In this document: positions 4,377-32,000 of the stretch, piece after piece
Layout of the letters: the number at the start of each line of letters is the position of its first letter
Numbering within the stretch: position 1 is the first letter of the stretch
Assembly (NCBI GenBank): GCA_965227835.1
Contig: OZ245768.1
Location: 1,080,001-1,112,000 of the forward strand
DNA: 32,000 bases
Direction: 5' to 3'
Origin: Candidatus Saccharimonadota bacterium
Lineage (GTDB): Bacteria > Patescibacteriota > Gracilibacteria > BD1-5 > UBA6164
Translations under genes and position numbers: made by a program
Notes under the pieces: generated by a model
Databases searched by the model: none
Told to the model about the DNA's origin: nothing
Seen by the model: the letters and a program-made list of their open reading frames with translations, nothing else

Positions 4377-4799
4377 TTATTTCTTAAAAAATAATAAAGA
4401 GTAAATTATGTTTAATATAGTAAATATTATAACCGCAATAACAAATTCTACTGTTCAATTTATGTCATATCATATTCAGTCTATAAGCAGTAAATCTGTC
4501 AAAATATAATCAAGGAGAAATAGTATAATACCATTTATAAAAAATACAACCAGACCGAAAAATAAAAAAAACAGAGGAATAGATAATATTTTTAATACAG
4601 GTTTAACAGTTATGTTTATTAAACCAAGTATTATTCCTCATAAAAGATATGTTTTCCAAGCTTCTATACTATTATAAGCACAATCAAGACATCAAAGTTT
4701 TATTCAAGATTCTAAATTTTTTAAATCATTTGCTCATAAAAAATAAGCAATAATAAAAAGTATTGAAGCATTTATTAATATGGATAAAAGTATTTTCAT
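4377..4799 (-). CDS. Phage-holin-family-4 / YvlD-like small membrane protein (140 aa)
   Basis: LLGGIILGLINITVKPVLKILSIPLFFLFFGLVVFFINGIILFLLDYIL resembles the PF04020 (Phage_holin_4_2) core. There are 4 TM segments. Its stop lies 4 nt upstream of the secG start. Confidence 0.5.
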
Positions 4800-6085: not shown

Positions 6086-7006
6086 ATGACAAACGAAAAA
6101 AAAGATATCTTTGATATTTTTGAAGATATAAAACAGGAAGAAAAAGAAGTAAATATAGATTTTTCTTATCAAACAGAAAATATAAATTATAATACATACA
6201 GCTTCAATTATAAAATAAAAAAACAAATAAAAGCATTAGTAATATTAAAAAACTTATTGAAATATATTTCTACAAGCTTTTTGATATTTGCTGTTTTAAT
6301 TTTAACTACAAACTACTCAGCATATATAGAATTGCTTAAAAGTGATCTATATTCAGATAAAATACAAAAAGAATCAAGTTCTCTTATAAATTCGGTAGAA
6401 GCTTCAAAAATAAAATCCAGTATACAAGAAAAAGAAGAAATAAAAAAAAGAGTAGATGAAGAAATATCAAAATCAAAAAAATCAAAATATTCTTTAAAAA
6501 ACTTATCCCTTGAGACAAACAAGGAAAAACCAAAATTAGACATAGAGATAACACCATATGAAAACAGAATAATAATACCTAAAATCACAAAAAATATACC
6601 TGTATTGGACCTAAAGCAAAAAAGTGTATCTTGAGAGAAAGAGCTTGAAGATATTTTTATGAAAGAGCTTGAAGATTGAGTAGTTAGATATCCCGGTAGT
6701 TCGAAACCTGGAAAAAATTGAAATACATTTATTTTTGGACATTCATCAAACTATCCTTGGATAAAATGAGATTACAATGATGTTTTTGTAAATTTAAATA
6801 AACTTGAATATCAAGATGAGGTCATACTTTATTATGAACAAGAAAAATACACTTACAAAATAAAGGAAAAAAAAGTTATAAAACCAGGGCAAACTGATAT
6901 TTTAAAAAGGAATAAAAACAAAGATGAAATAACATTAATGACTTGTTGGCCTATTGGTACGACTCTTAACAGGTTAATAGTAATATGAGAAAGGGTTGAA
7001 ATATAG
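6086..7006 (+). CDS. Sortase-family transpeptidase (306 aa)
   Basis: The track ORF 6086-6634 continues through TGA to TAG 7004-7006. It has an N-terminal TM segment (STSFLIFAVLILTT), a catalytic His (FIFGHSS), the TLxTC motif (ITLMTCWPIGT) and a downstream Arg (LNRLIVIGE). Confidence 0.75.
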
Positions 7007-14328: not shown

Positions 14329-15606
14329 ATGAAAAACAAACTAACCCTCCAACCAAAAAAAGCATTCACCTTAGTAGAGCTAATAGTAGTAGTAACAATA
14401 CTAGCAATAATCTGAACAATATGATTTGTAAGCTATACAGACTATCTATCTTGAGTAAGAGATACAAATAGAACAGTACAACTAGAAAGTATATGAGATT
14501 GATTAAAACTATCACTAACAAAATGAAGACTTCCAATACCCGATGACTACATAGAAGTTAAAACTAGTTGAGATACTATAGCATATCAAGGATATGCATG
14601 AGAAGAAGTACTAAAAAAAATTAAATATGACAAAGAAGGTAAAGATCCACTAGATAATACATATTTTTCATACTATGCTACAGATAATAGAAAGAACTTT
14701 CAATTAATGGCATTACTAGAAGAAACAAATGAAACTGTAAGTTTATATAATAGAAGAGAAGTATTATCTGAGGATATAGATTATTCAGACAGACAAGTTA
14801 AGGTAAGTTGAAAGAAGCTATGAATATTAACTGGGGGTTGAGATAATTTAAATGTTCCAGTACAAGAAATATGAGAGATAAAAGATAATTGAGAATTAGA
14901 TATAGCTACTACACCAGAAGAATATATATCCCATATAGATGATAATGATAAGATTAGTTGAAATTGAAGTGAATTAATTAAATCAATATATAATGCTAGT
15001 TGTAAGAGGATTTTAGAATCTAGTTTAGATAATTGAGATTGAATTTATAAGATAAATCCTGCTGGAACAGAAGAATTTGAGGTTTATTGTGATATGGAAA
15101 CTGATGGGGGTGGGTGGACTTTAATAGAGAGTTTTTCTTTAGAAAACAAAGATATTTATACATTTGGAGCTTTCTATGAAGATTTACCAAGAAACGAAAA
15201 TACTCCAAAAAATTTTGAAGACTTTAGATTGTCTTTAAGTAAAATGGAAGACTTAGTAGATATTTCAACTGAAGTTAGAGCTGGATGTAATATGGAAATA
15301 AATCCATCAAAAGACTATGTATTTTTTGATTTGTCTGAATTAAATATTTTAACATTTCAAGGAATTGGAGAGTATAAAAAAACAAAAAAATTAAATGTAA
15401 GAGGAAATTTTTATGAAAATGAAGATCTAAAATGGTGGCAAGGAAATAATATTGGTAATAATGATCATCTACATATAGATTCAAATATTGATAATATTCC
15501 TAACTCAATTTACTCAGAAGATAACTTCGGCCATTATAGGTATATAAACCAAGAGTTTTCTTGTACTTCTTCTCAAAGTTCAACAACTAATTGGTATTTA
15601 AGATAA
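14329..15606 (+). CDS. Type IV pilin-like protein with a C-terminal fibrinogen-like YCDxxxxGGGW domain (425 aa)
   Basis: ATG at 14329 is the first start after an in-frame TAA at 14308. I checked all triplets to 15094 and found no TAA/TAG. The gene joins the track ORF 15094-15606 in frame. The N-terminus, MKNKLTLQPKKA/FTLVELIVVVTILAII, is a prepilin cleavage/methylation motif with Glu at +5. Residues encoded at about 15000-15130, [43 protein letters not shown], match the opening subdomain of fibrinogen-related domains. Confidence 0.8.
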
Positions 15607-17622: not shown

Positions 17623-18771
17623 ATGAGCAAAAAAGCTTTTACATTAATAGAAATAATGATATGAATCTTAATCAGTTCTATGATAATAGTAGTCTGATTT
17701 CAGTCATTTAGCTATATAATGGTTTGAAAAGTAAAACTTATAGAATCTACCAATATAGAAAAAGAAAGTTTTAGTTTTATGCAAAAATTCTTTGAAGAAA
17801 TAAAAGCTTGATGATTAATAGACTATGAAGAATATTTCAATAGAGCTATGATAAATTGAAACTCATCATGAAACTCACTATATTCTTCCTGACACTTCAA
17901 GAAAAAAAGCTGATTTTGAAACTTTTGAATAAATGGAACTTGATGAACAACTAGTTACTGAAATTGATTTTATTATTGTAGAAGTGATGGTTGAAAAAAA
18001 ATGACAGGAACATGATGTATAGCTGAATTTAATACCACATGAGCTTCTGTTTTTTGAACAAATCAAAGATATGGGCAATATAGTTTTCATTTTATAGACT
18101 ATAACTCAAATTTTGATAATGACTGATGAGATGAAGATTGAGATGGAAGTATAATTTGAGATGATGATGATGAGTATTTAGGAAAATGACCAAATGTATT
18201 TGATTCTTGAGAAGATGTAGTAGAACTATATCTAATATCTGCAGATAAAAAAAGAAGAACATTTTTCAGATGGAAAGTAGTTGATGATCCCTATATAGAA
18301 AATTCAGTAGCTAGCTGTGATTTTACCGATCCAAAAAGTCCAACAGGGTCAGGATGTCTAGGAACAATAGAATTTTTAAAATTAGACTGAAAAGACTGGG
18401 GCTTTGATCATGATATAAGTAATTCAGCAAAAAATTGAGAATATGATTGAGTAGTTGATACTTGGCTTATAGATAGTGATTTCTCTGAATTTGCAGGGCA
18501 AACTTGAAATAAAATAGCATGAAGTGATAATATAGACTATTGGATACCTCTGTTTCCAGATTCTATAAGTGTAAAGTCATTTGATGTGAGAGTTTATCCA
18601 CACAAGAATATAAAAGATGCTTGGAGGGAGCAATGAATTGATTTATCTCCGTATGTTAGAGTAAGTATAACTCTTACCCCCAGCTGGAAAATAAAAAAGA
18701 AAATAAGATGAAAAGTCCCAGAATTTAATATAAGTACAACTATTAATTTAACAGATATATTTAGTAGATAA
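17623..18771 (+). CDS. Minor (pseudo)pilin-like protein with a prepilin N-terminus (382 aa)
   Basis: MSKKA/FTLIEIMIGILISSMIIVVGF is a class III signal with Glu at +5. The large variable domain includes an Asp-rich loop, DNDGGDEDGDGSIIGDDDDEY (18115-18177). I checked in-frame triplets from 17623 to about 18300 and saw TGA only. The stop is TAA at 18769-18771. Confidence 0.7.
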
Positions 18772-18773
18772 AT

Positions 18774-19646
18774 ATGAAAAAAAACAAAAAATGATTGTCC
18801 TTAGTCGTTGCTATATCTATGGCATTACTTATGTGACTTTTGGCAATATATATTTTGGAGTATATGATACCTTTTTCCAAAAACACAAAAGGTATAGAAA
18901 ATAGTGTTTGAGCATATTATCTGGCAGACTCTGCAATAGAAGATGCCCTTTATTCTATGAGCTGACAAACACTAGGATATAAAAAAACAGATTCACTATC
19001 AGGAAATAGAGATTATTCTATAGCTATGTCAGCAAATTGAAATACCTTGCCACCTTCTGGAGAATGAAATAGTGAGTTTGATAAAGATTACAATATATTG
19101 AGATTATGAGACCCTATTCAAATAGAAGTTTGAAGTGGGGCAATTACTAGTAGTTCTAATTTTAAAATATATATCAAAGTACCAGACCTAAATTCAGCAA
19201 GTGAACAAGATGAGACATTAAGTTGAGCAAGTTTGAAGATAGCAAATTGGCAATTATCCTCAAGTAGTGATGTATTAAATGCAAGTGGTAGTCAAATAAC
19301 AGCTACAGAAATAAATAATGATTGAAGTAGTTGAATAAGTTTATGAAATAAAGTTTGATCCAATTTAGCAAATGATTCAAAAACTTTTTCTAATTTCTAT
19401 TGATCAGAGTGTAATGGTTCATGAGAAGTATGTAAACTAAAAATTTCAGTAATTAACAAACTTGAATTAACAAACGGAACAAATGTGCCTTATTTAGAAT
19501 GGAAGATAGTAAATGGTAGTAGTATACCTCTAAGATATACAATAATAGACACAATTTGAAGATCCTATGGTTTTAGAAAAATCCTAAAAGTGAAAGTCCC
19601 TCAACAAACTGTAAATGAAGCTTTTGATTTTACCGTATTTCAGTAA
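18774..19646 (+). CDS. PilX/ComGG-like minor pilin candidate (290 aa)
   Basis: It starts 2 nt after the previous stop. The N-terminus, MKKNKKG/LSLVVAISMALLMGLLAIYILEY, is a hydrophobic pilin-like helix without Glu at +5. That feature and the position after a minor pilin fit PilX-type proteins. Confidence 0.5.
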
Positions 19647-20584: not shown

Positions 20585-22480
20585 ATGTCTAAAGATATAA
20601 ATAAAATAAATAATTGATGAGATGCTCCCAAAGAAGACAAAGTATTGTTTGAGTTAATTAAAACTAAACAAACTATTTGAAATATACTAGAAGGAGATAA
20701 TGGAAGCTTATTGTCATTAGAGAATTTGAAAATAAATAAAGAAACTTGAGAAATTATAGGTTGAATTGCAAAAAGCTTGCAACAGGAAAAATTTCCATTT
20801 TGGAAACAAGAAGATAAATATGTACTAATAAAAGCAAAGTGAAAATATAACTATATTGATATTAAAAGTATTGATAGGGATAAAAAAACATGAGAAATAC
20901 TAATTTTTTCTATAAAAAATAACACCCCTATTGAAAGAAATTATTTTTATAAAGAAGCAGGTAAATATAAGAAGCTTAAAATAGAATGAATTGATAGCAT
21001 AGAAAAAGCATGTAGTATAAAATTAAATGAACAAACAGGAGAAATAGTAGGATGACGCTTTGAAGAATCTATTAATAGCTCTTGAGTTTTCATCAAAAAA
21101 GATAATAAATTTGTTAAATTAGAAATAGAATGAGTTGGTAATATTAGGAATATACATAGTTTAAAAATAGATGAAGAAACTTGAGAAATAATAGATTGAG
21201 TAGTAATATGTAAAAACCTCAAAACATTAGCATTTCAAAAACAATGAAATAAGTTTATTAAATTAGAGATAGAATGAATTAACCATACCATGGATATAGA
21301 AAGTTTAAAAATAGATGAAAAAACATGAGAAATATTAAGATGAATAGCCCTAATAAATGGATTTGACACTTGAAACTTTATGCCTTTTTACAGAAAAAAT
21401 GGTAAACTGACCAAATTAGAAATAGAAGGAATTGATGAAATTTTAGGTATGCATGATTTAAAAGTAGATGATGAAACCTGAGAGGTACTAGCTTGAATTG
21501 CAGTAGATAGAAATCAAGGACAAACTGCATTTGAAAAACAATGAAATAAATATGTAAAAATAAAAATAGAAGTAGAATGAGTTGGTGAGATAAAATGTAA
21601 GTATGATCTAGCTACAAATGACGAAAATTGAGAGTTATTAGCTTGAACTGGTCTAGATAAAAAATGATACCAAATACTATTTTATAAAAAATGAGATAAA
21701 TATGAAAAATTAAAAATAGAATGAATTAATAATGTAGAAGGAATAGAAACTATAGAAATGGACGAAGCAAAAAGAGAATTAATAAGTTGAGTATTAATAA
21801 TAGAAAATTGCAATCTTGTAGCTTTTTTAAAAGATAATGATAAATATATTAAGTTAGAGATAGAATGAATTAATGAAATTAAAAATATATATAATATAAC
21901 TTCAAATAAAGAAACAGGAGAGATATTTAGCTGAATAGCTGAATATGGAGAACTTAAAACTATACCTTTTTTCAAAAAAGATAATAAATTTATTAGGTTA
22001 GAAGTAGAAGGAATTGATGAAATACAGGATACAAATAACTTAAAAATAGATGATGAAACTTGAGAGGTTTTAACCTGAATTGCAATATATAAAGACTATT
22101 ATGAAATACCATTTTTTAAAGAATGAAGTAAATATGTTAAATTGAAGATAAAATGAGTTGATGAAATAATAGATACACCTATCAATACATTAAAAATAAA
22201 CAATAAAACTTGAGAAATATTATTTTGATTTGCGGTGTGTGAAAACTGATATGAAATACCATTTTATAAAAACTGAAATGAATATGTTAAATTGGAAGTA
22301 AAATGAGTTGACGAAATAGTAAATACGAAAAATTTAGAAATAGACTATGAAGCTTGAGAGTTATTAACTTGAGTATTAACAGATGGAATTTGAAACGAAA
22401 TATGATTTTATAAAAGATGAGGTGAATATGTAGTTAAAAAAGACAAAGAATACGATTTTGTAGAAGAGGATGTTTGGTAG
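20585..22480 (+). CDS. Tandem-repeat protein, about 12 repeats of about 48 aa (631 aa), function unknown
   Basis: ATG at 20585 to TAG at 22478-22480, in frame (1896 nt), open only with TGA as a sense codon. The repeat consensus is about K[YF]VKLEIEG[IV]DEIxxxxxLKIDxETGE[IV]LxGIAxxxxxxxxxF[FY]KKxN. There is no signal peptide. Confidence 0.75.
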
Positions 22481-24814: not shown

Positions 24815-25960
24815 ATGGTAAATTTATTCAAATGAGGACCACAGGTATCTGAAAATTTCTCAGATTCTCTAGAAACAAAAGATCCTCTAACTAATTTAGA
24901 AGGAGAACAGATCACACCAGATGGTTGATGAATGTATGGAAAATTTGAAAGACCTAAAACTCCAACTGATCCTTTAGAAGATGTTGATGAAAGTGGTTGA
25001 ATATTAGATGTTTTGGATGAAGAAGAACCAAATAATGGGAATAGTGGAAATGAAATAGCAGATCCTTTTGGAAGTATTGATGATAGTAGTTTATCATCTA
25101 ATAATTTAAATGGAGCTGAAAATTTAGACAATTCAAACAACAAAAACGAAATAACTGATCCTTTTGGAGATATTGAAAACAATGATTGAGCATTAAATCA
25201 ATCAGATTGAACTGAAGTTTTAAATAATTCAAATGGTATAACACAAACAACAGAAGATTTATTGGCTTCCACTAATTTAGACGGACTTAGTGAAGAAAAA
25301 TTATTAGAAAGACAAGAAAATCTAAAAAACAAATCAAAAAATCTAGATACACTAATAAGAGATATTGAGACTATAAAAAATCTAGATTCTTTGTATAGTT
25401 TGGATATAGATTTAGCTACAGAGGAAAAAAGTTTTAACTCTGAGGTTTTAAATAAAATTTGATGAAATTATCTAAAAACACCTCTAGAAAATTGAGAGTT
25501 TGATTTAGAAGCTGATTTTAGTATGGCTATACTTGAAACAAAAGCTGAAATAATAGATGAATGTGCTAATATAAAAATGGATAGCGAGACTTACAAAGTT
25601 GCTATTAGAAATATAGAATCTGGAGATATAAAAAGACAGCTAGAATGAATAGAAAGTCTTTATTATTTAGCTTATTCAAATGAGTGAAAATTATGAAAAG
25701 CTAGTTTAGACAAATTTAAAAATAAGAAAAAACAAAGGTTAATAGATGAAGGAAGAAAGATAGATGAGAAATTACAATTAGCAATAAATCAAAAAAACGA
25801 AAAAGAATTACTAAATAAAAGAAAGCAGGAAATTATAATGGAATTATCTGAAATGACTTGAATAAAAGATTGAGAAAAAGTAGAATGATGAGATGTGTTT
25901 ACAGCAAGTATGAATGAGCAAAATGAAAGAGGAAGTTTAGAAAAAGAAGGGCAGGCTTAG
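24815..25960 (+). CDS. Acidic protein with a disordered N-terminal half and a coiled-coil C-terminal half (381 aa), unknown function
   Basis: ATG at 24815 to TAG at 25958-25960, in frame with the track fragment 25262-25462. An internal duplicated motif, NEI[AT]DPFG[SD]I, lies within 25049-25180. The C-terminal half is Lys/Glu-rich. There is no signal peptide. Confidence 0.6.
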
Positions 25961-26013: not shown

Positions 26014-26054
26014 AGACAAGAATTAGGAAATATTCAAACCACTAACTTATTAAA

Positions 26055-26093
26055 ACAAAAAAATAAATGAAACTTTGTTTCATTTATTTTTTT
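26055..26093. terminator. Bidirectional intrinsic terminator between convergent genes
   Basis: AAATAAATGAAAC (26061-26073), loop ttt, then GTTTCATTTATTT (26077-26089) form a perfect 13-bp stem. An A tract lies upstream and a T tract downstream. Confidence 0.6.
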
Positions 26094-26105
26094 ATATATC
26101 AAATT

Positions 26106-28757
26106 TTACCCTTCAACATAACTAAAATTCACTTCATCTATTCAAAAAACATTTGAAAGAGAATAATAAGTTTCACTATCTATAAACCAATCTGCTTTTA
26201 TATTTTCGTTACTAGATTTTAAATTCAAAACTCCACCTGATTGATCCAAACTAAACTCAATAGATTCTGAAATTTCTTCGGGAAAATATAGCTTAATTAT
26301 TTCTATTTTATCACTTGCTGATATAGAAGATGTATCTTGCCTTACTTTTTCCATATCTAATTCTCATTCCACCATATATTCATCATAACTTAAATCTTCA
26401 CTACCCATTGCATAAGAAAATCCTGAAATTCAAATCAAAGCAATAATTGCTGCAATTCTTTTCTTTCAAGAAAACTTACTAGTCTTAGAGATAGCATCTC
26501 TTAAAGCTTCTCTTGGACTTGGCATTACTCTAGCAGTTTTGTAAAGTTTATGTCAAATTTCAGCTGTTCCTCTTCATATATCATAAATATCCATAATTGG
26601 TTTACCCAAGTATTTAATCTTGGATTTAAGTCATTTTTCTTTAATTAAGAAATATCAATCCAAAGCAAGAAATCATCATCATAAGACAAGCTGTTCTAAA
26701 TTATCAACTTTTACACCATCATTCCAATCAATTCATGAATTTCAAACAAGTGCTATAGGTCATACAATAGGTATAAGATATGGAACTTGGTTCAATAATT
26801 CTTCTAAAAATGGTTTTTCAGAATGAGCAGAAAATCACACAATGGATATAATGGGAAGTTTATTAAAAAATCATTTAATTAGCTCTGGTGATGATTGAGC
26901 TAATACATTCATTTTTTTAAAAAAATTTTGTGCTCAAGCTTTATCTTGAAATTCAAAAACTAGTTTATCAGATAAATGTGCAACTTTTGAAACAGAAAGT
27001 GTTTCTCTAAATTTAGAAAAAACTCAAAATCATCTATCCAATACATTTTGCTGATGTTTTACAGCATTTTCTATAGCTCTATTTAGCTCTTGCATAGCAG
27101 AACTTTTTCAAAATCAAAATCCTACTTCTTTAATAAGATGATTTTTATTTGCTTGAAATTTTATTTCAAAATCTTCTGTAAAACCTGATCATACTCTTTG
27201 AGAAGCTAGTTTAGATATATCATCAAGATCACCATAACTATTTATATTAAAATTATTTCACATATAATTATTTATAAAAGAAGCATTTTTTCAGCTCATT
27301 TGTCTTTTAAATCAATCTATATCTCATGAACTTTCAATAATATGCATCATTCTATAGTTATCTTTGAGTTTACCAATTACAGCTTCAACTTTTGTAATAT
27401 AAATATTATCTGCTACTCAAGTAATTGCTTGTTCAAGCCTTGCTATATTTCTAAACTGTTGTTCCGGTCATTTTAAAATACCATCCTTAAATAGTTTTAA
27501 TCAATCTACTCATGTATTTGATGGTAAAACAACATCAAGTCAGACTCTGGCAATACCCGCTGATAAAGAACCAACAGCACTGAAAAATATTCATCATTTT
27601 CTATATAATAATCATATAAGAGCTGCTCTTTTATCTTCATCCATATTGTTAAGTTTTTCTATTAGTGAGTCAGTATCTATATTTCAAGATAATCATACTC
27701 AAGGTATGGCTATATTTATAATATCATTAGAACTTCAAACGAAATCCCAAGCCATATCAAAAACACTTATAATTCAACTTCACACTAAATCCAAACCAAA
27801 ACCTACAGAACTTCATAAAAGAGGGTAAATTTCTTTTATTTTTAGATTTTTGTCCTCAAGTATTTCATCCAGTTTACTGCTGGTTAAATCATCTGATAAA
27901 AAATGTTTTTGTATTAGTAACTTCAAAGAAGCTTGTTGGTCTTCATCCAAAGATGTATCAAAATTTCCTTCTATTAAAGATTTTATATCATCAAAATATT
28001 TCTGTCCTAAGTTTTCAAAAACTTGATTAAAATCTAGACTGGCAAAATCCTCTTTTAATTCTCATATAGTTATTCATTCTCAACTTTTAATTTTATTATG
28101 GTAATGTGTAATTTTTGCCTGTGTAAAAATAGTTTCATTATCAAGGATAATATCTACTTGATCTTCATCAAGGTTAGGAAAATATCCTAAAATACTAGAT
28201 CTTATACTATCTTTGACAGATTTTACTTCATCGTGATCTATTAATTCTTGTAATTTTTCTTGGGAATTTATCCCATTAATCATCTCATATCAAGTTTTTA
28301 AGCCTAAAAATCCCAAAATAGCCATTCAAATGGGTTTTTTAAACATTGAGTAAAAAGTGTTTCAAAGAGATGATTCACCTCCTTTAGTATTCATAAAATC
28401 TAAAGCAAAATCAAAGATATATCAACCAAATCAAAAAAACTTCTTACTTGCTACTTGTCTTAATTCCTTTATTTGTTCAGGATTATTTCCTTCTAATATA
28501 TCTGAAATATTTGTCTCTCTGTTTGAATTTCAAGACACAAGAGGTTTTTCAACTAAAGATTTAAGGTACAGGTAATGATCTTCTATATTTGATTGTAAAT
28601 TTTCTAGCCTTGAATTTATCTCCATTTCAAGTTCTTCTTTATTTGAAATTTCTTCTAATCTTTGTCTTATTTCTTCCCAGTTATATCATTCCTGTTCAAA
28701 TCTTTGCTGAATTTCTACTTGTTTTCACCCAAAGATGTCTAAATTTCTTGAACTCAT
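26106..28757 (-). CDS. Large membrane protein, unknown family (883 aa)
   Basis: I enumerated every in-frame triplet from 26106 to 28781. The only stops are TAA at 26106-26108 and the upstream TAA at 28779-28781. The first ATG is at 28755-28757. The gene absorbs track fragments 26142-26354 and 28080-28283. It has an N-terminal coiled coil (EIQQRFEQEGYNWEEIRQRLEEISNKEELEMEINSRLENLQ) and then at least 7 Gly-rich hydrophobic segments (for example LLGSSVGFGLDLVGSGIISVF, GGIFFSAVGSLSAGIARVGL, LVLGGGFLALDGYFLI, RIAAIIALIGISGFSYAMG). Confidence 0.7.
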
Positions 28758-28791: not shown

Positions 28792-31700
28792 CTACACTAT
28801 CTGATCAATAAATCAATCTTCTTTAATTCAAAGTTTTTCTAGTGCTGTATGAAGTCAAGCCATACTTATTATTCATAGCTTATACATACCATAAATATTT
28901 CAAGCTATAGCTCAAATATTTACTAAATTATCCATAGATAACAAATCTTTATTTTCGTCAGCAATCGAAGAAGCAATATTTACAATTTCATCATCAGACA
29001 ATAAAAAAGCTATTCATCCTGATACACCTTTATAGAAATTAGGATTTTTCTTCAAATGAGGTCAAATAAAAGGTAGTTTTTCTAAGTATGATCCTAAATT
29101 TGCATAATGTAGTTTTCAGTCTACCCATAATTTTGCTGCTTTTAGTTTATCCAGTGATGAATTAAATCATCTTTTGAAGTCCACATTTTTAAAAGATGCA
29201 GATAATCTAGGAATAGAAGATATAGCAGGATTAGAAGCTATAAAAAGCCTTTCATCCATCTTAACAGCTAAAGCTTCTATAATTTTTTCATCTTTTATAT
29301 TTACTTGTTGCCCATTAAATTTTGTTGTTATAGCTCAATTGTCATTAATAGAAACATTGTAGGTTTTACCATCTACTTCAACCTCTATATCTTTTCAAAC
29401 AAAATGCTTTTTAAATTTTGACATCTCAATATTGAAAAACTTTATTTCTTCAAGCACTCAATCTTTGTCTCATATAGCTTGTTTTAACTTTGTTCTACGC
29501 ATAGAAGCAGATATACTTCATACTCATCATATCAAAGCCAAAGGAGCCCAAGCAAGATTGTTTACAAAAGATGCACCTAGGTCATAATCATGTTCAAATA
29601 ACATAGCCCTTAGAGCTTCTCATCACATTCATATCACAGCTACATCTCAAGCCATTTCAGTTCATACTACTCATAGAGCAGTAAGCCTCGAGGTGTTTCT
29701 TTTGAGCATAAATTTACTAAGCATATTTATACCTTTAGCTGCTCATCCTTGAAGTCATAGAATTGCTGTTTCTCCAGCAAATTCTCAAATTCAATTACTT
29801 TCTCATCTGGCTATAGTATTTAGAGTAGTTCATGCTACAGCACCTCATCAAATAATAGCTCATCAAACTAATACTCAAGGAGCAAAAAATATAGTAGCTG
29901 CTGTTGCTCAAACCATTGTTACACCTCATCATACATTTTGTAATATATTATCTGTTGTTTCTTCTTCAAAATCAAAAAATCATATACCTCTGTTGTCTTT
30001 TAATATTGATATTGCCCTTTTTACCAAAGGATCTCTACTGTTACTATTTATTTCTATGAAATGTTCCAAGTCTATATCAAATTTTTTAATTTCTTTTTCA
30101 AAGTTAGGGTCATTTAAATCTGGAAATTTAGGACATCAATCAATATCTTGAAGTATTCAAAGTGCCATAATACTTGATAAGTTATAGTTTCTCAAATGAT
30201 CATTATCTAGTTCTCAAACTCATCATGAGTAATATTCAGCTAAAAATATATAGGTTTCTCTTAATTTACTAGATAATTCAGGGTTATTTTGCTCTCTTAT
30301 TCTAAGTTCAGAAATTATTATAAGTATATCTTCATACTGTGACTCTAATTCTTTGGAGTAATGTTCAATTGTATCTTTTTTATTCCAGACAATTCAAAGC
30401 ATATTTTCTAAATCCTCTGTCTTTTGGGCTATAATTTTAAAGTTTTCAAGTCTAAAGCTTAGACCATTTATAAGTTGAGAGTCAGAAACATTTTCTGGAG
30501 ATTGTGTTATTTGTTCTAAAATACTATCGTCTTCTACATCTATATCAGGAGTAGTTGTATCAAGAGTATTTGGAATATTGTTGTCTTGTGGCAATACTGG
30601 AGCTTGTTCACCTAAAGAAATTTGATTTTGTGAAATGTTTGCATCTTGCACATTAGTTTCAGTTCAAGATAAAGAAAGTATTACATCAGAAACTGTGCTT
30701 CTTCCATCACCTTTATTGTTAACTAAATATTGTATAAATTTAGGTATATCTTCATCTGTTATTCATGCATTTTGTAAAGCTCTTTTTTCTGTATCATTAA
30801 GTAGGAGAGCATTTATAGTAGTTATATCATCTATAGAATCTATATATTTTCAAAAGAGTATGGTATTTGAAGAAAAAACAGATGTAAGAACAGAAATTTT
30901 ATCTCTTCACAAAGCCTCTGATCATCTATCCAAATCCATATCACTTATGGAAGAAGAAGCATTTTCTAAAACTCTACCTGAGTCTATACTGTTGCTTCAT
31001 AAATTTGCACTACTGCTTCATAGATTTGTAGTTATATTATTTATAGCATTACTTCTAACTCTAGTTTGTTCAGGTGTATTTGAAAATCAAGAGCTAAAAG
31101 TATCTGTAACTTTATCAGAGGCATGACTTAAAAGTTCTCATCATCATAAGAATAAAAAACCTAAGGTTAAAGGTATCCTAGTATACCATTTTTCTCATCA
31201 GGGTATTTGTCTATACATTTCTTTTGGTATACCAAAAATTAATGATAATGTTAAAAATAACATACCCATTGATTTCAACCCTCACTTATTTTTATCAAAC
31301 CATGATCACCAGTCTTCTTTTCATTCAAATACTGGTATCATTGATCAGAAAAATGTTTTTGATGCCCCAGTTGGAATATTTTGTTTAGGGTCAACATTTT
31401 CTAAAACTTCACTATCTTCAGTTTTGTCAAAAAAACTGTCCAGTTTTTCAAAAAATATGCTATAATCATTTGTTTCATTTCATGTGGGTGTAGATCTAAA
31501 CTCAGATAAAAAAGCCAAAAGACCTTTATCTTCTGGTGTTCATACAAAGTTAAGTCAAGATATATTGGTATTTTTGTTTAATACAGAGAGTATTTCTATT
31601 TGATCTTGGCTTGATATACCTTGCTTGAATGAATCATTTCTAAATTTTTCCAAAACTGTTCAGGCTTTCATTTCTATATATGTCTCTTTCCCAAGTATTC

Positions 31701-32000
31701 AGTCTTTTGATATATTGTGTTCTTCTTGATAGTTTTGAATAGCTTGTTTAAAATCTTCAAACACAAAAGGATCTTCTACTCCCAAAGTTTCTTTTGCTAG
31801 TCTCAAAGCCTCACTTCTAGATATACCTATTTTTTCAAGATTTGAGGAAGTTAGTTGCATTTCATGGTTTGAAAGTCTTTCTTGAGTTTCTTCTATAATA
31901 TCTTCTTGGGCATTATTTACAGCTTCTAATTCTCATGTTTCTGCTTGCTCTTGAGATTCTGGCCAAACTTGTACTGGTCTTACCAAGCCTATACTTCATT
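28792..32000 (-). CDS. Giant membrane-associated protein, unknown family, more than 1069 codons; 5' end probably off-window
   Basis: I enumerated every in-frame triplet from TAG 28792-28794 to the window edge (32000) and found no TAA/TAG. It absorbs the track fragment 30394-30651. It contains a PG_binding_1-like motif (FEDFKQAIQNYQEEHNISKDGILGKETYIEM, 31669-31761), TM pairs (MGMLFLTLSLIFGIP, LTLGFLFLGGG), an acidic Pro/Asp/Thr linker and a glycine-zipper hydrophobic block (GGGVTMVGATAATIFFAPGVLVGGAIIGGGAVAGTTL...ALIGGVGSISA, about 29480-29940). An internal start (for example ATG 31858-31860) cannot be excluded. Confidence 0.7.

Follow-up and report, generated by a model that had tools for sequence, protein, structure and literature searches.

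A window of 32,000 nucleotides from Candidatus Saccharimonadota bacterium, placed by GTDB in the Gracilibacteria (positions 1,080,001 to 1,112,000 of contig OZ245768.1, assembly GCA_965227835.1), carries two large adjacent genes on its minus strand, which we call A (28792..32000) and B (26106..28757). The G+C content of the window is 26.6%. With TAA and TAG as the only stops, the frame of gene A is open from 28792 to 31998; it comprises 1,069 codons, runs past the window edge and ends with a TAG codon at 28792-28794. These codons include 68 in-frame TGA. The frame is thus as an earlier note on this DNA had described it, that is, free of TAA and TAG from 28795 to the window edge, rich in TGA and invisible as one giant gene under the standard code.

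Gene A is a single gene read with translation table 25

Over the whole window, open frames of at least 150 codons number 5 when TGA is taken as a stop and 22 when it is taken as a sense codon. The 22 frames tile the window as ordinary genes, including those for ribosomal proteins, rpoA, gatA, a sortase, pilins and an AI-2E transporter. When the TGA sites of the uS11 gene were aligned to solved ribosomes, they fell on Gly at 10 and on Ala at 2 of 12 positions, and on Trp at none. Comparison of gene A with the 96%-identical contig L001 revealed three swaps between GGN and TGA, in which GGT, GGG and GGA of the window are replaced by TGA. Moreover, TGA accounts for 68 of the 97 glycine codons in gene A and for 426 of 667 (64%) over the genes of the window. 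Because the uS11 alignment, the codon swaps and the share of TGA among the glycine codons agree, we conclude that TGA encodes glycine in the source organism, as in translation table 25.

The only close database match of protein A, P0001, is encoded on L001, a 34.5-kb contig of the European Nucleotide Archive (ENA) that reaches 2.67 kb beyond the end of the window. L001 allowed the extension to the true start and the upstream neighbours that the earlier note had suggested. The gene starts there with an ATG at L001 2570, about 34 codons past the window edge and behind an AT-rich spacer. The N-terminus rebuilt from L001 begins with MSRNIENVELDVGRMDINDGVSIPVGGKMDVPGG, and the full protein has about 1,102 amino acids, made up of the 1,069 codons of the window and about 34 N-terminal codons beyond its edge.

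In L001 itself, a 2-bp insertion splits gene A into two called pieces. The assembly depth of this contig is 4.9x and both B and the rsmB gene are split there too, which points to assembly indel errors as the cause of all three breaks. Under table 25, the A orthologues in the loci L002 and L003 run uninterrupted over 1,267 and 1,242 codons, and that in L006 over more than 990. From the base composition, 1,068 codons free of TAA and TAG would arise with a chance of about 1e-26 to 1e-33. Gene A of the window differs from that of L001 at 51 codons synonymously and at 49 non-synonymously, a balance that indicates purifying selection. Amino-acid conservation extends along the whole core of the protein. 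Gene A is therefore one true gene of some 1,102 codons under table 25, as the earlier note had supposed, and we have hardly any doubt that the gene is real, that its operon is conserved and that its family had not been described before.

The differences from L001 are unevenly spread. Across about 300 codons of the conserved core (window 29500-30500, codons ~500-800 of A) almost none is found, not even a synonymous one, while the flanking parts of the gene differ at 5-15% of codons. Strains may have recombined here recently, or the nucleotide sequence itself may be under constraint.

Code 25 also leaves long plus-strand open frames antisense to A, at 29588-30187 (200 codons) and 30362-31465 (368 codons). 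Similar antisense frames seem "conserved" in L001, L002 and L005, where they mirror the sense gene. We rejected these frames as genes and regard them as by-products of the sense frame; such frames can mislead gene callers when a code-25 genome is AT-rich.

Domain organization of protein A

Protein A is modular, with an exchangeable N-terminal module, low-complexity linkers, a conserved core of about 430 residues, a variable insert and a Gly-rich helical tail. All of the sub-features listed in the earlier note, the Ser/Asn-rich and acidic linkers and the Gly-rich hydrophobic block among them, are present where it had placed them. Residue numbers given here refer to the full-length protein, and all coordinates are on the minus strand.

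Residues 1-85 are acidic and lack a hydrophobic N-terminus. They are followed by a PG_binding_1-like module (residues 86-148, LEKIGISRSEALRLAKETLGV...YQEEHNISKDGILGKETYIEM, 31657..31845). Two short hydrophobic segments flank a basic loop at residues 271-324 (31129..31290); this pair is conserved in L004 and L006, weakly so in L002, and absent from L003. In residues 325-540 (30481..31128), a helical stretch lies between a low-complexity linker rich in Ser and Asn and a second linker that is acidic/polar. This region varies across the orthologues and contains Pro/Thr and Asn/Thr repeats in L006.

The family core comprises residues 541-952 and is 39-45% identical to the orthologues in L002, L003, L006 and L007. 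It opens with a conserved helical domain (residues 541-722, 29935..30480), which closes with the near-invariant motif DNRGIGFFDFEEETTD at 29947-30006; a second copy of the motif was not found in the window. Next comes a weakly hydrophobic block rich in Gly (19%) and Ala (14%), with about five helices (residues 723-870, 29491..29934). The helices are set apart by conserved polar turns (APG, ARGES.G, KRNTSR, EHDYD and WAPL..LGG), and in the middle of the block a hydrophobic hairpin (..IFFAPGVLVGG..) lies between amphipathic helices with acidic residues. A basic helix and a small beta-rich domain complete the core (residues 871-952, ...FVGKDIEVEVDGKTYNVSINDNG...KDEKIIEALAVKM, 29245..29490), and in the alignment they are conserved in every orthologue that covers them. 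The remainder (28795..29244) comprises a variable region (residues 953-1024), where the alignment shows inserts of ~180 to 500 residues in L002, L003 and L005, and a Gly-rich helical C-terminal tail (residues 1025-1102).

An AlphaFold2 (AF2) model, which like the exhaustive search below was based on database sequences with Trp in place of Gly at TGA, has a mean predicted local distance difference test score (pLDDT) of 51 and a predicted TM-score (pTM) of 0.31. The helical domain alone reaches a pLDDT of 70-85, and beta strands are predicted at residues 627-656 of P0001 with a pLDDT of ~60-73. Foldseek searches of PDB and BFVD with this model brought up nothing at E <=0.001, the TM-scores being ~0.1; with so poor a query we take the result as uninformative rather than negative.

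The N-terminal module weakly resembles wall-binding domains

The earlier note had pointed out a motif resembling PG_binding_1 at 31669-31761. The motif recurs in orthologues, although its Pfam match (PF01471, E=0.005, 17.4 bits) falls below the gathering threshold of 23 bits. A weak PF01471 match was obtained for three of the four orthologues having this N-terminal region, the best with E=0.0032, and PHROGs gave a weak endolysin match over the same residues. When a profile of the module from four orthologues was compared with PDB sequences, 7 of the 15 weak matches were PG_binding_1 proteins, all aligned on that domain (E 0.0038-1.6). They include YcbB (E=0.0038), 5tv7 (0.0051) and the KZ144 endolysin (0.014), as well as 4xxt, 1lbu and 5nm7. 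The resemblance of the A N-terminus to PG_binding_1 in four lineages is suggestive, but neither significant nor a proof.

Known PG_binding_1 proteins such as the endolysin of phage KZ144, the L,D-transpeptidase YcbB of E. coli and the Zn D-Ala-D-Ala carboxypeptidase of Streptomyces (1lbu) share with A a helix-loop-helix signature, L..LG...(F/Y)Q...gi..DGi.G..T, which A carries in its N-terminal 60 residues. KZ144 resembles A further in that the module is N-terminal and the protein lacks a signal peptide. Unlike these proteins, A has no catalytic wall-hydrolase domain, and its remaining ~950 residues are unrelated to them.

In the L003 orthologue (L003 8849-12577), an SH3_3-like segment (E=0.0087) takes the position of the module, within the N-terminal 120 residues. 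Because PG_binding_1-like and SH3b-like modules, both typical of lysins and autolysins, interchange at one position, this swap is the best argument that the N-terminus may bind wall material. The same orthologue lacks the short hydrophobic pair altogether and has a C-terminal insert of ~500 residues.

Hydrophobicity and glycine pattern of protein A

The Gly/Ala-rich block had been described as a glycine zipper in the earlier note. The Gly-rich hydrophobic block is real (29491-29934), but its periodicity is no more than its composition yields. GxxxG occurs 7 times, as against 5.2 ± 1.9 in composition shuffles, and 488 of 2,000 shuffles reached this number; the glycine-zipper motif occurs twice, as against 2.5 from the shuffles. 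Each orthologue has 1 to 5 GxxxG, none more than its own shuffles and not conserved in register.

We scored A and B with the Hessa scale, here used as a position-independent scale and not as a full topology predictor. The best 19-residue windows of the two proteins lie at +1.2 to +2.6 kcal/mol (+2.4 to +2.6 at best in the Gly/Ala block), whereas true membrane proteins of the same window reach -1 to -4.6 kcal/mol. The TM-like segments that had been noted around 31150-31290 do exist as the hydrophobic pair, but they are too weak for classical transmembrane helices, with no 19-residue Hessa window at <=3 kcal/mol between 31129 and 31290. Neither a signal peptide nor a hydrophobic N-terminal segment was found in five A orthologues. 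By the criteria of signal peptide and insertion energy, A does not appear to be a classical integral membrane protein inserted by Sec/SRP. Weakly hydrophobic helices of this kind are the pattern of proteins that insert after folding, for example those with colicin-type hairpins.

Genes A and B very probably form an operon

Gene B (26106..28757, minus strand, 883 codons) starts 34 nt past the stop codon of A. Its product has a coiled-coil N-terminus and several Gly-rich, weakly hydrophobic segments and lacks a signal peptide. No family match was found for B in Pfam, PHROGs, NCBIfam or PADLOC, nor a PDB match by sequence or profile. The 34-nt spacer between A and B contains no hairpin or terminator. 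An AT-rich 13-bp hairpin followed by a T-run lies just past the stop codon of B (26052..26089, minus strand); its RNA fold has -16.3 kcal/mol with z=-5.3, a value reached by 0 of 200 shuffles, and it is probably the terminator of an A-B operon. Because the two genes have the same orientation, a short spacer without terminator and a terminator after B, they are very probably co-transcribed.

The stem of this terminator has two G-C pairs among its 13 bp and was missed by a standard terminator scan. Scans tuned to G+C-rich stems under-call in this genome.

We also considered A and B as paralogues and rejected the idea, with an hhalign probability of 0.15% and a BLAST hint (E=0.007) that was not confirmed.

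The surroundings of the pair are of a housekeeping kind, and the absence of phage and conjugation genes around A that the earlier note had remarked on holds in the window and in the loci L001 to L006. Upstream of A, L001 carries a prmC/HemK-like gene and an rsmB/F-type methyltransferase gene; downstream of A lie B, an unannotated acidic ORF, gatA and rplS.

Relatives and distribution of the family

An exhaustive phmmer search with P0001 against 1.84 billion cluster representatives yielded five true relatives only. All five have many Trp residues at positions proper to Gly; they thus stem from organisms with code 25 in which gene calling had used code 4. Beside the uninterrupted orthologues in L002, L003 and L006, fragments of A orthologues were found in L004, L005 and L007. 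The gene next downstream of A in L002 and L003 is an orthologue of B, 43% identical in the first and 24% in the second. The conserved neighbourhood that the earlier note had proposed to look for thus exists: the A family is known from six code-25 lineages, and the A+B pair from two lineages besides that of the window.

The flanks of the pair differ between lineages. The contig of L003 measures 399 kb; upstream of the pair it carries tuf, rpsJ, rpmB and rpsP, and downstream queA and a thioredoxin-fold gene. In L004 and L006, queA and an extra gene C (550-590 residues) are found upstream of A. Because the pair is kept while its housekeeping flanks differ, A+B is a chromosomal cassette passed on vertically within a small clade.

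Gene C (L004 2464-4230, L006 1656-3314) lies directly upstream of A, and its two copies are 46% identical. It encodes a GGFFGFILGLIFG segment and an Ala/Lys coiled coil; it has no Pfam match and no counterpart in the window, L002 or L003. In L002, the position upstream of A is taken by a frameshifted ORF (L002 2-1521, 1.6x coverage), whose ..DIQGIGDWD.. motif precedes helices rich in Gly and Ala and a beta region rich in Lys. In layout this ORF loosely recalls the A core, with no significant similarity by BLAST; it may be a distant paralogue of A.

All other searches remained nearly empty. Word-indexed homology searches with A, B and the core profile recovered the near-identical L001 copies and one 54-residue fragment only. 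A peptide-pattern scan of the GTDB genomes (185,579 species representatives) found no family member. The DNA pattern DNRG[IV]Gx[FL]D[FL]xEExT, with TGA allowed for Gly, matches the window and four fetched loci and is absent from the GTDB representatives, the JGI metagenome contigs and IMG/VR; such scans miss members without the motif, and at least the JGI collection lacks contigs known to carry it. Searches of Pfam, NCBIfam, PHROGs and PADLOC with A and B, of Pfam with the orthologues and of PDB by sequence and profile gave the sub-threshold PG_binding_1 and SH3_3 matches only, and tblastn found no match among 50,697 phage records and 72,556 plasmids. The A core is an undescribed family of narrow distribution that is extremely rare in current databases.

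Other genes in the window

Convergent with B, the plus strand at 24815-25960 encodes a very acidic, Asn/Asp/Ser-rich protein of 381 residues with a C-terminal coiled coil, for which we found no family match and no counterpart beside B in L002 or L003. A Phage_holin_4_2 (PF04020) membrane protein (4377-4799, minus strand) and a sortase (6086-7006, plus strand) are the only "phage-like" or wall-anchoring genes of the window; they lie more than 20 kb from A, among housekeeping genes.

A type IV pilin-like cluster on the plus strand (14329-15606, 17623-18771 and 18774-19646) is interrupted by the gene of an AI-2E family transporter. The first two of these genes carry N-terminal methylation motifs, and the one at 14329-15606 contains a segment like fibrinogen C (PF00147, E=3e-7), an uncommon feature for a pilin. 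The third has no Pfam match and is pilin-like by its hydrophobic N-terminus only. The gene at 20585-22480 (plus strand) encodes a 631-residue protein of about eleven tandem units of ~50 residues (K.VKLEIEGIDEI....L.ID.ETGEIL.GIA...), without a signal peptide and with stray sub-threshold Pfam matches only.

Discussion

Several known systems resemble A or the A+B pair in part. Gly/Ala-rich, weakly hydrophobic helices, a hydrophobic hairpin set among amphipathic helices with acidic residues, and the lack of a signal peptide liken A to colicin-type pore domains. The same features are found in glycine-zipper membrane-active effectors, namely the LXG toxin TelE of a T7SS (type VII secretion system; bioRxiv 10.1101/2022.09.07.506920), Tde1 of a type VI secretion system (T6SS; PMC10240207) and the ionophoric CdiA-CT toxins (PMC11630599). 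Unlike the effectors, A has no significant zipper periodicity, and its block covers ~150 of 1,100 residues. No LXG, PAAR, Rhs or CdiA delivery domain was found in A or B, nor any machinery for T6SS, T7SS or contact-dependent growth inhibition (CDI). In contrast to polymorphic toxin systems, the downstream partner B is a conserved protein of 883 residues and not a small immunity protein.

YaxAB and XaxAB are binary alpha-helical pore-forming toxins. They share with A+B two adjacent co-transcribed genes, helical products without signal peptides and hydrophobic "foot" segments, whereas A and B exceed them two- to threefold in size, match them neither in sequence nor in fold and are not detectably paralogues of each other. 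Polar landmark proteins of the FimV/HubP/TspA type have an N-terminal wall-binding LysM domain, a membrane anchor and long acidic low-complexity regions. A is like them in its N-terminal wall-binding-type module, its acidic low-complexity stretches and its size, and type IV pilin genes occur elsewhere in the window; it differs in the lack of a signal peptide, in another wall-binding fold and in the absence of a sequence match, and pilin genes are not linked to A+B in other loci.

The explanation that we favour, at a probability of about 35%, is that A and B together dock on the wall and insert into a membrane, at the envelope or where the cell meets its host. A itself would be a conditionally membrane-inserting protein and not a Sec-inserted one. 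Its N-terminal module would dock on peptidoglycan, and its Gly/Ala-rich block, with the amphipathic helices at its flanks, would enter the membrane together with B, so that a conduit or lesion might be formed or held open. Docking and insertion fit better than a Sec-inserted protein because the heads are of a wall-binding type, the linkers look extracellular, a signal peptide is missing, the hydrophobicity is weak and the hydrophobic hairpin lies among amphipathic helices. As to the linkers, Pro/Thr stretches as in L006 and Ser/Asn stretches are usual in extracytoplasmic proteins. The site of action could be the contact zone between a host-dependent cell and its host, since the family is narrowly distributed within code-25 lineages, for which host-dependent or predatory biology has been reported (PMC8080830, PMC11452946). 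That A acts at the cell envelope at all has in our view an even chance; the specific picture of wall docking followed by insertion from outside is unlikely enough to be held only tentatively. The earlier note had also proposed a cell-envelope or host-interface component, and for this part the interchange of PG_binding_1-like and SH3b-like modules lends some support while the absent signal peptide complicates matters.

A number of observations weigh against wall docking and insertion from outside. The PG_binding_1 and SH3_3 matches all stay below curated thresholds, and the L006 module has no Pfam match at E <=0.01. No export route is visible, and beside the pair there is neither a gene for a secretion system nor a small immunity-like gene nor a toxin domain. 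A stable housekeeping setting and a well-conserved core would suit a resident component better than an effector. The AF2 model, with its pLDDT of 51 and no Foldseek match at E <=0.001, is not usable as a structure. The loop charges of the five-helix block, by our own reading of the sequence, fit the positive-inside rule with an N-out/C-in orientation, and this rule applies to proteins inserted from the cytoplasm of the producer's own cell.

The last points lead to the main rival explanation, which we consider doubtful, in which A and B are a resident envelope scaffold. The pair would remain permanently in the cytoplasmic membrane of its own cell, anchored by the Gly/Ala helices and tied to the cell's own peptidoglycan by the module, with a structural or organisational role, for example at an attachment pole, like wall-anchored landmark proteins of the FimV/HubP type. 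A two-gene operon conserved in the housekeeping contexts of several lineages, the purifying selection on A, its well-conserved core and the lack of toxin, immunity or secretion genes nearby agree with such a role, as do the loop charges. The role is difficult to reconcile with an N-terminal region of 270-720 residues that has neither a signal peptide nor a strong signal-anchor to export it, with an L003 orthologue devoid of even the short hydrophobic pair, and with helices that are much less hydrophobic than those of the true membrane proteins encoded here; furthermore, the family is limited to a few lineages and is not general in code-25 bacteria. Less probable again is a scaffold inside the cell, held on the inner leaflet by weak hairpins, whose modules serve as generic protein-interaction domains. 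This arrangement agrees with the missing signal peptides of all orthologues, the marginal hydrophobicity, the sub-threshold module matches and the coiled-coil and helical content. Two different wall-targeting-type modules at one position would then be hard to explain; linkers of the Pro/Thr, Asn/Thr and Ser/Asn kinds are uncommon in the cell interior, and the charge pattern of the loops as we read it is the opposite of the one expected.

The earlier note had kept open a phage tape-measure protein and a conjugation or secretion channel component. Some tape-measure proteins bear muralytic or wall-binding motifs together with hydrophobic segments, for example T5 Pb2 and the tape-measure protein (TMP) of mycobacteriophage TM4. 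In length, helical content, weakly hydrophobic Gly-rich segments, a wall-directed motif and the lack of a signal peptide A has a general likeness to them, and a few appear among the non-significant BFVD matches (E 0.1-1, TM-score ~0.1). A differs from them in that it lies outside a tail module, at a housekeeping locus, with the conserved partner B and without a family match. The note had named a tail module upstream of A as the sign of a tape-measure protein, and L001 shows the prmC-like and rsmB/F-like genes there. No tail, head, integrase, relaxase or coupling-protein gene was found in the window or in the loci L001 to L006, and no tape-measure or type IV secretion system (T4SS) match in PHROGs, Pfam or NCBIfam at E <=1; the phage-genome and plasmid searches were empty and the family motif is absent from IMG/VR. 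Gene context and searches together effectively refute both the tape-measure and the conjugation (VirB6/TrbL/TraG-like) readings, and a prophage or conjugative origin of A is very improbable. Still less credit can be given to the view that A is not one gene, that is, a chance frame, several smaller genes or a pseudogene read under the wrong code: the split L001 copy speaks for it, and the low coverage of that contig, the uninterrupted frames of 990-1,267 codons in the window, L002, L003 and L006 and the conservation of the core speak against it.

Large unannotated lineage-specific envelope proteins are common in candidate-phyla genomes, and A+B as such shows no new kind of system. Should A+B prove to be a plain structural part of the cell, a new lineage-specific family would be gained, one of many in these genomes. 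A bolder possibility, which we regard as improbable, is that A+B is a hitherto unknown, Sec-independent binary translocon of a small clade of code-25 episymbionts or predators, which docks on host peptidoglycan by the exchangeable PG_binding_1/SH3b module and opens a conduit in the host membrane by the Gly/Ala-rich helical block. Genes of this kind are hidden by code 25, as every database relative was called with Trp at TGA or fragmented. For the breach or tapping of the host by Gracilibacteria and Absconditabacteria, genome studies name only pili, hydrolases and "giant surface proteins" (PMC8080830, PMC11452946). The conserved operon of two large proteins described here, with a wall-binding-type head and a membrane-active-looking core, offers a concrete candidate for host contact, and if the translocon were real, A+B would be the feeding or attack pore of these cells.

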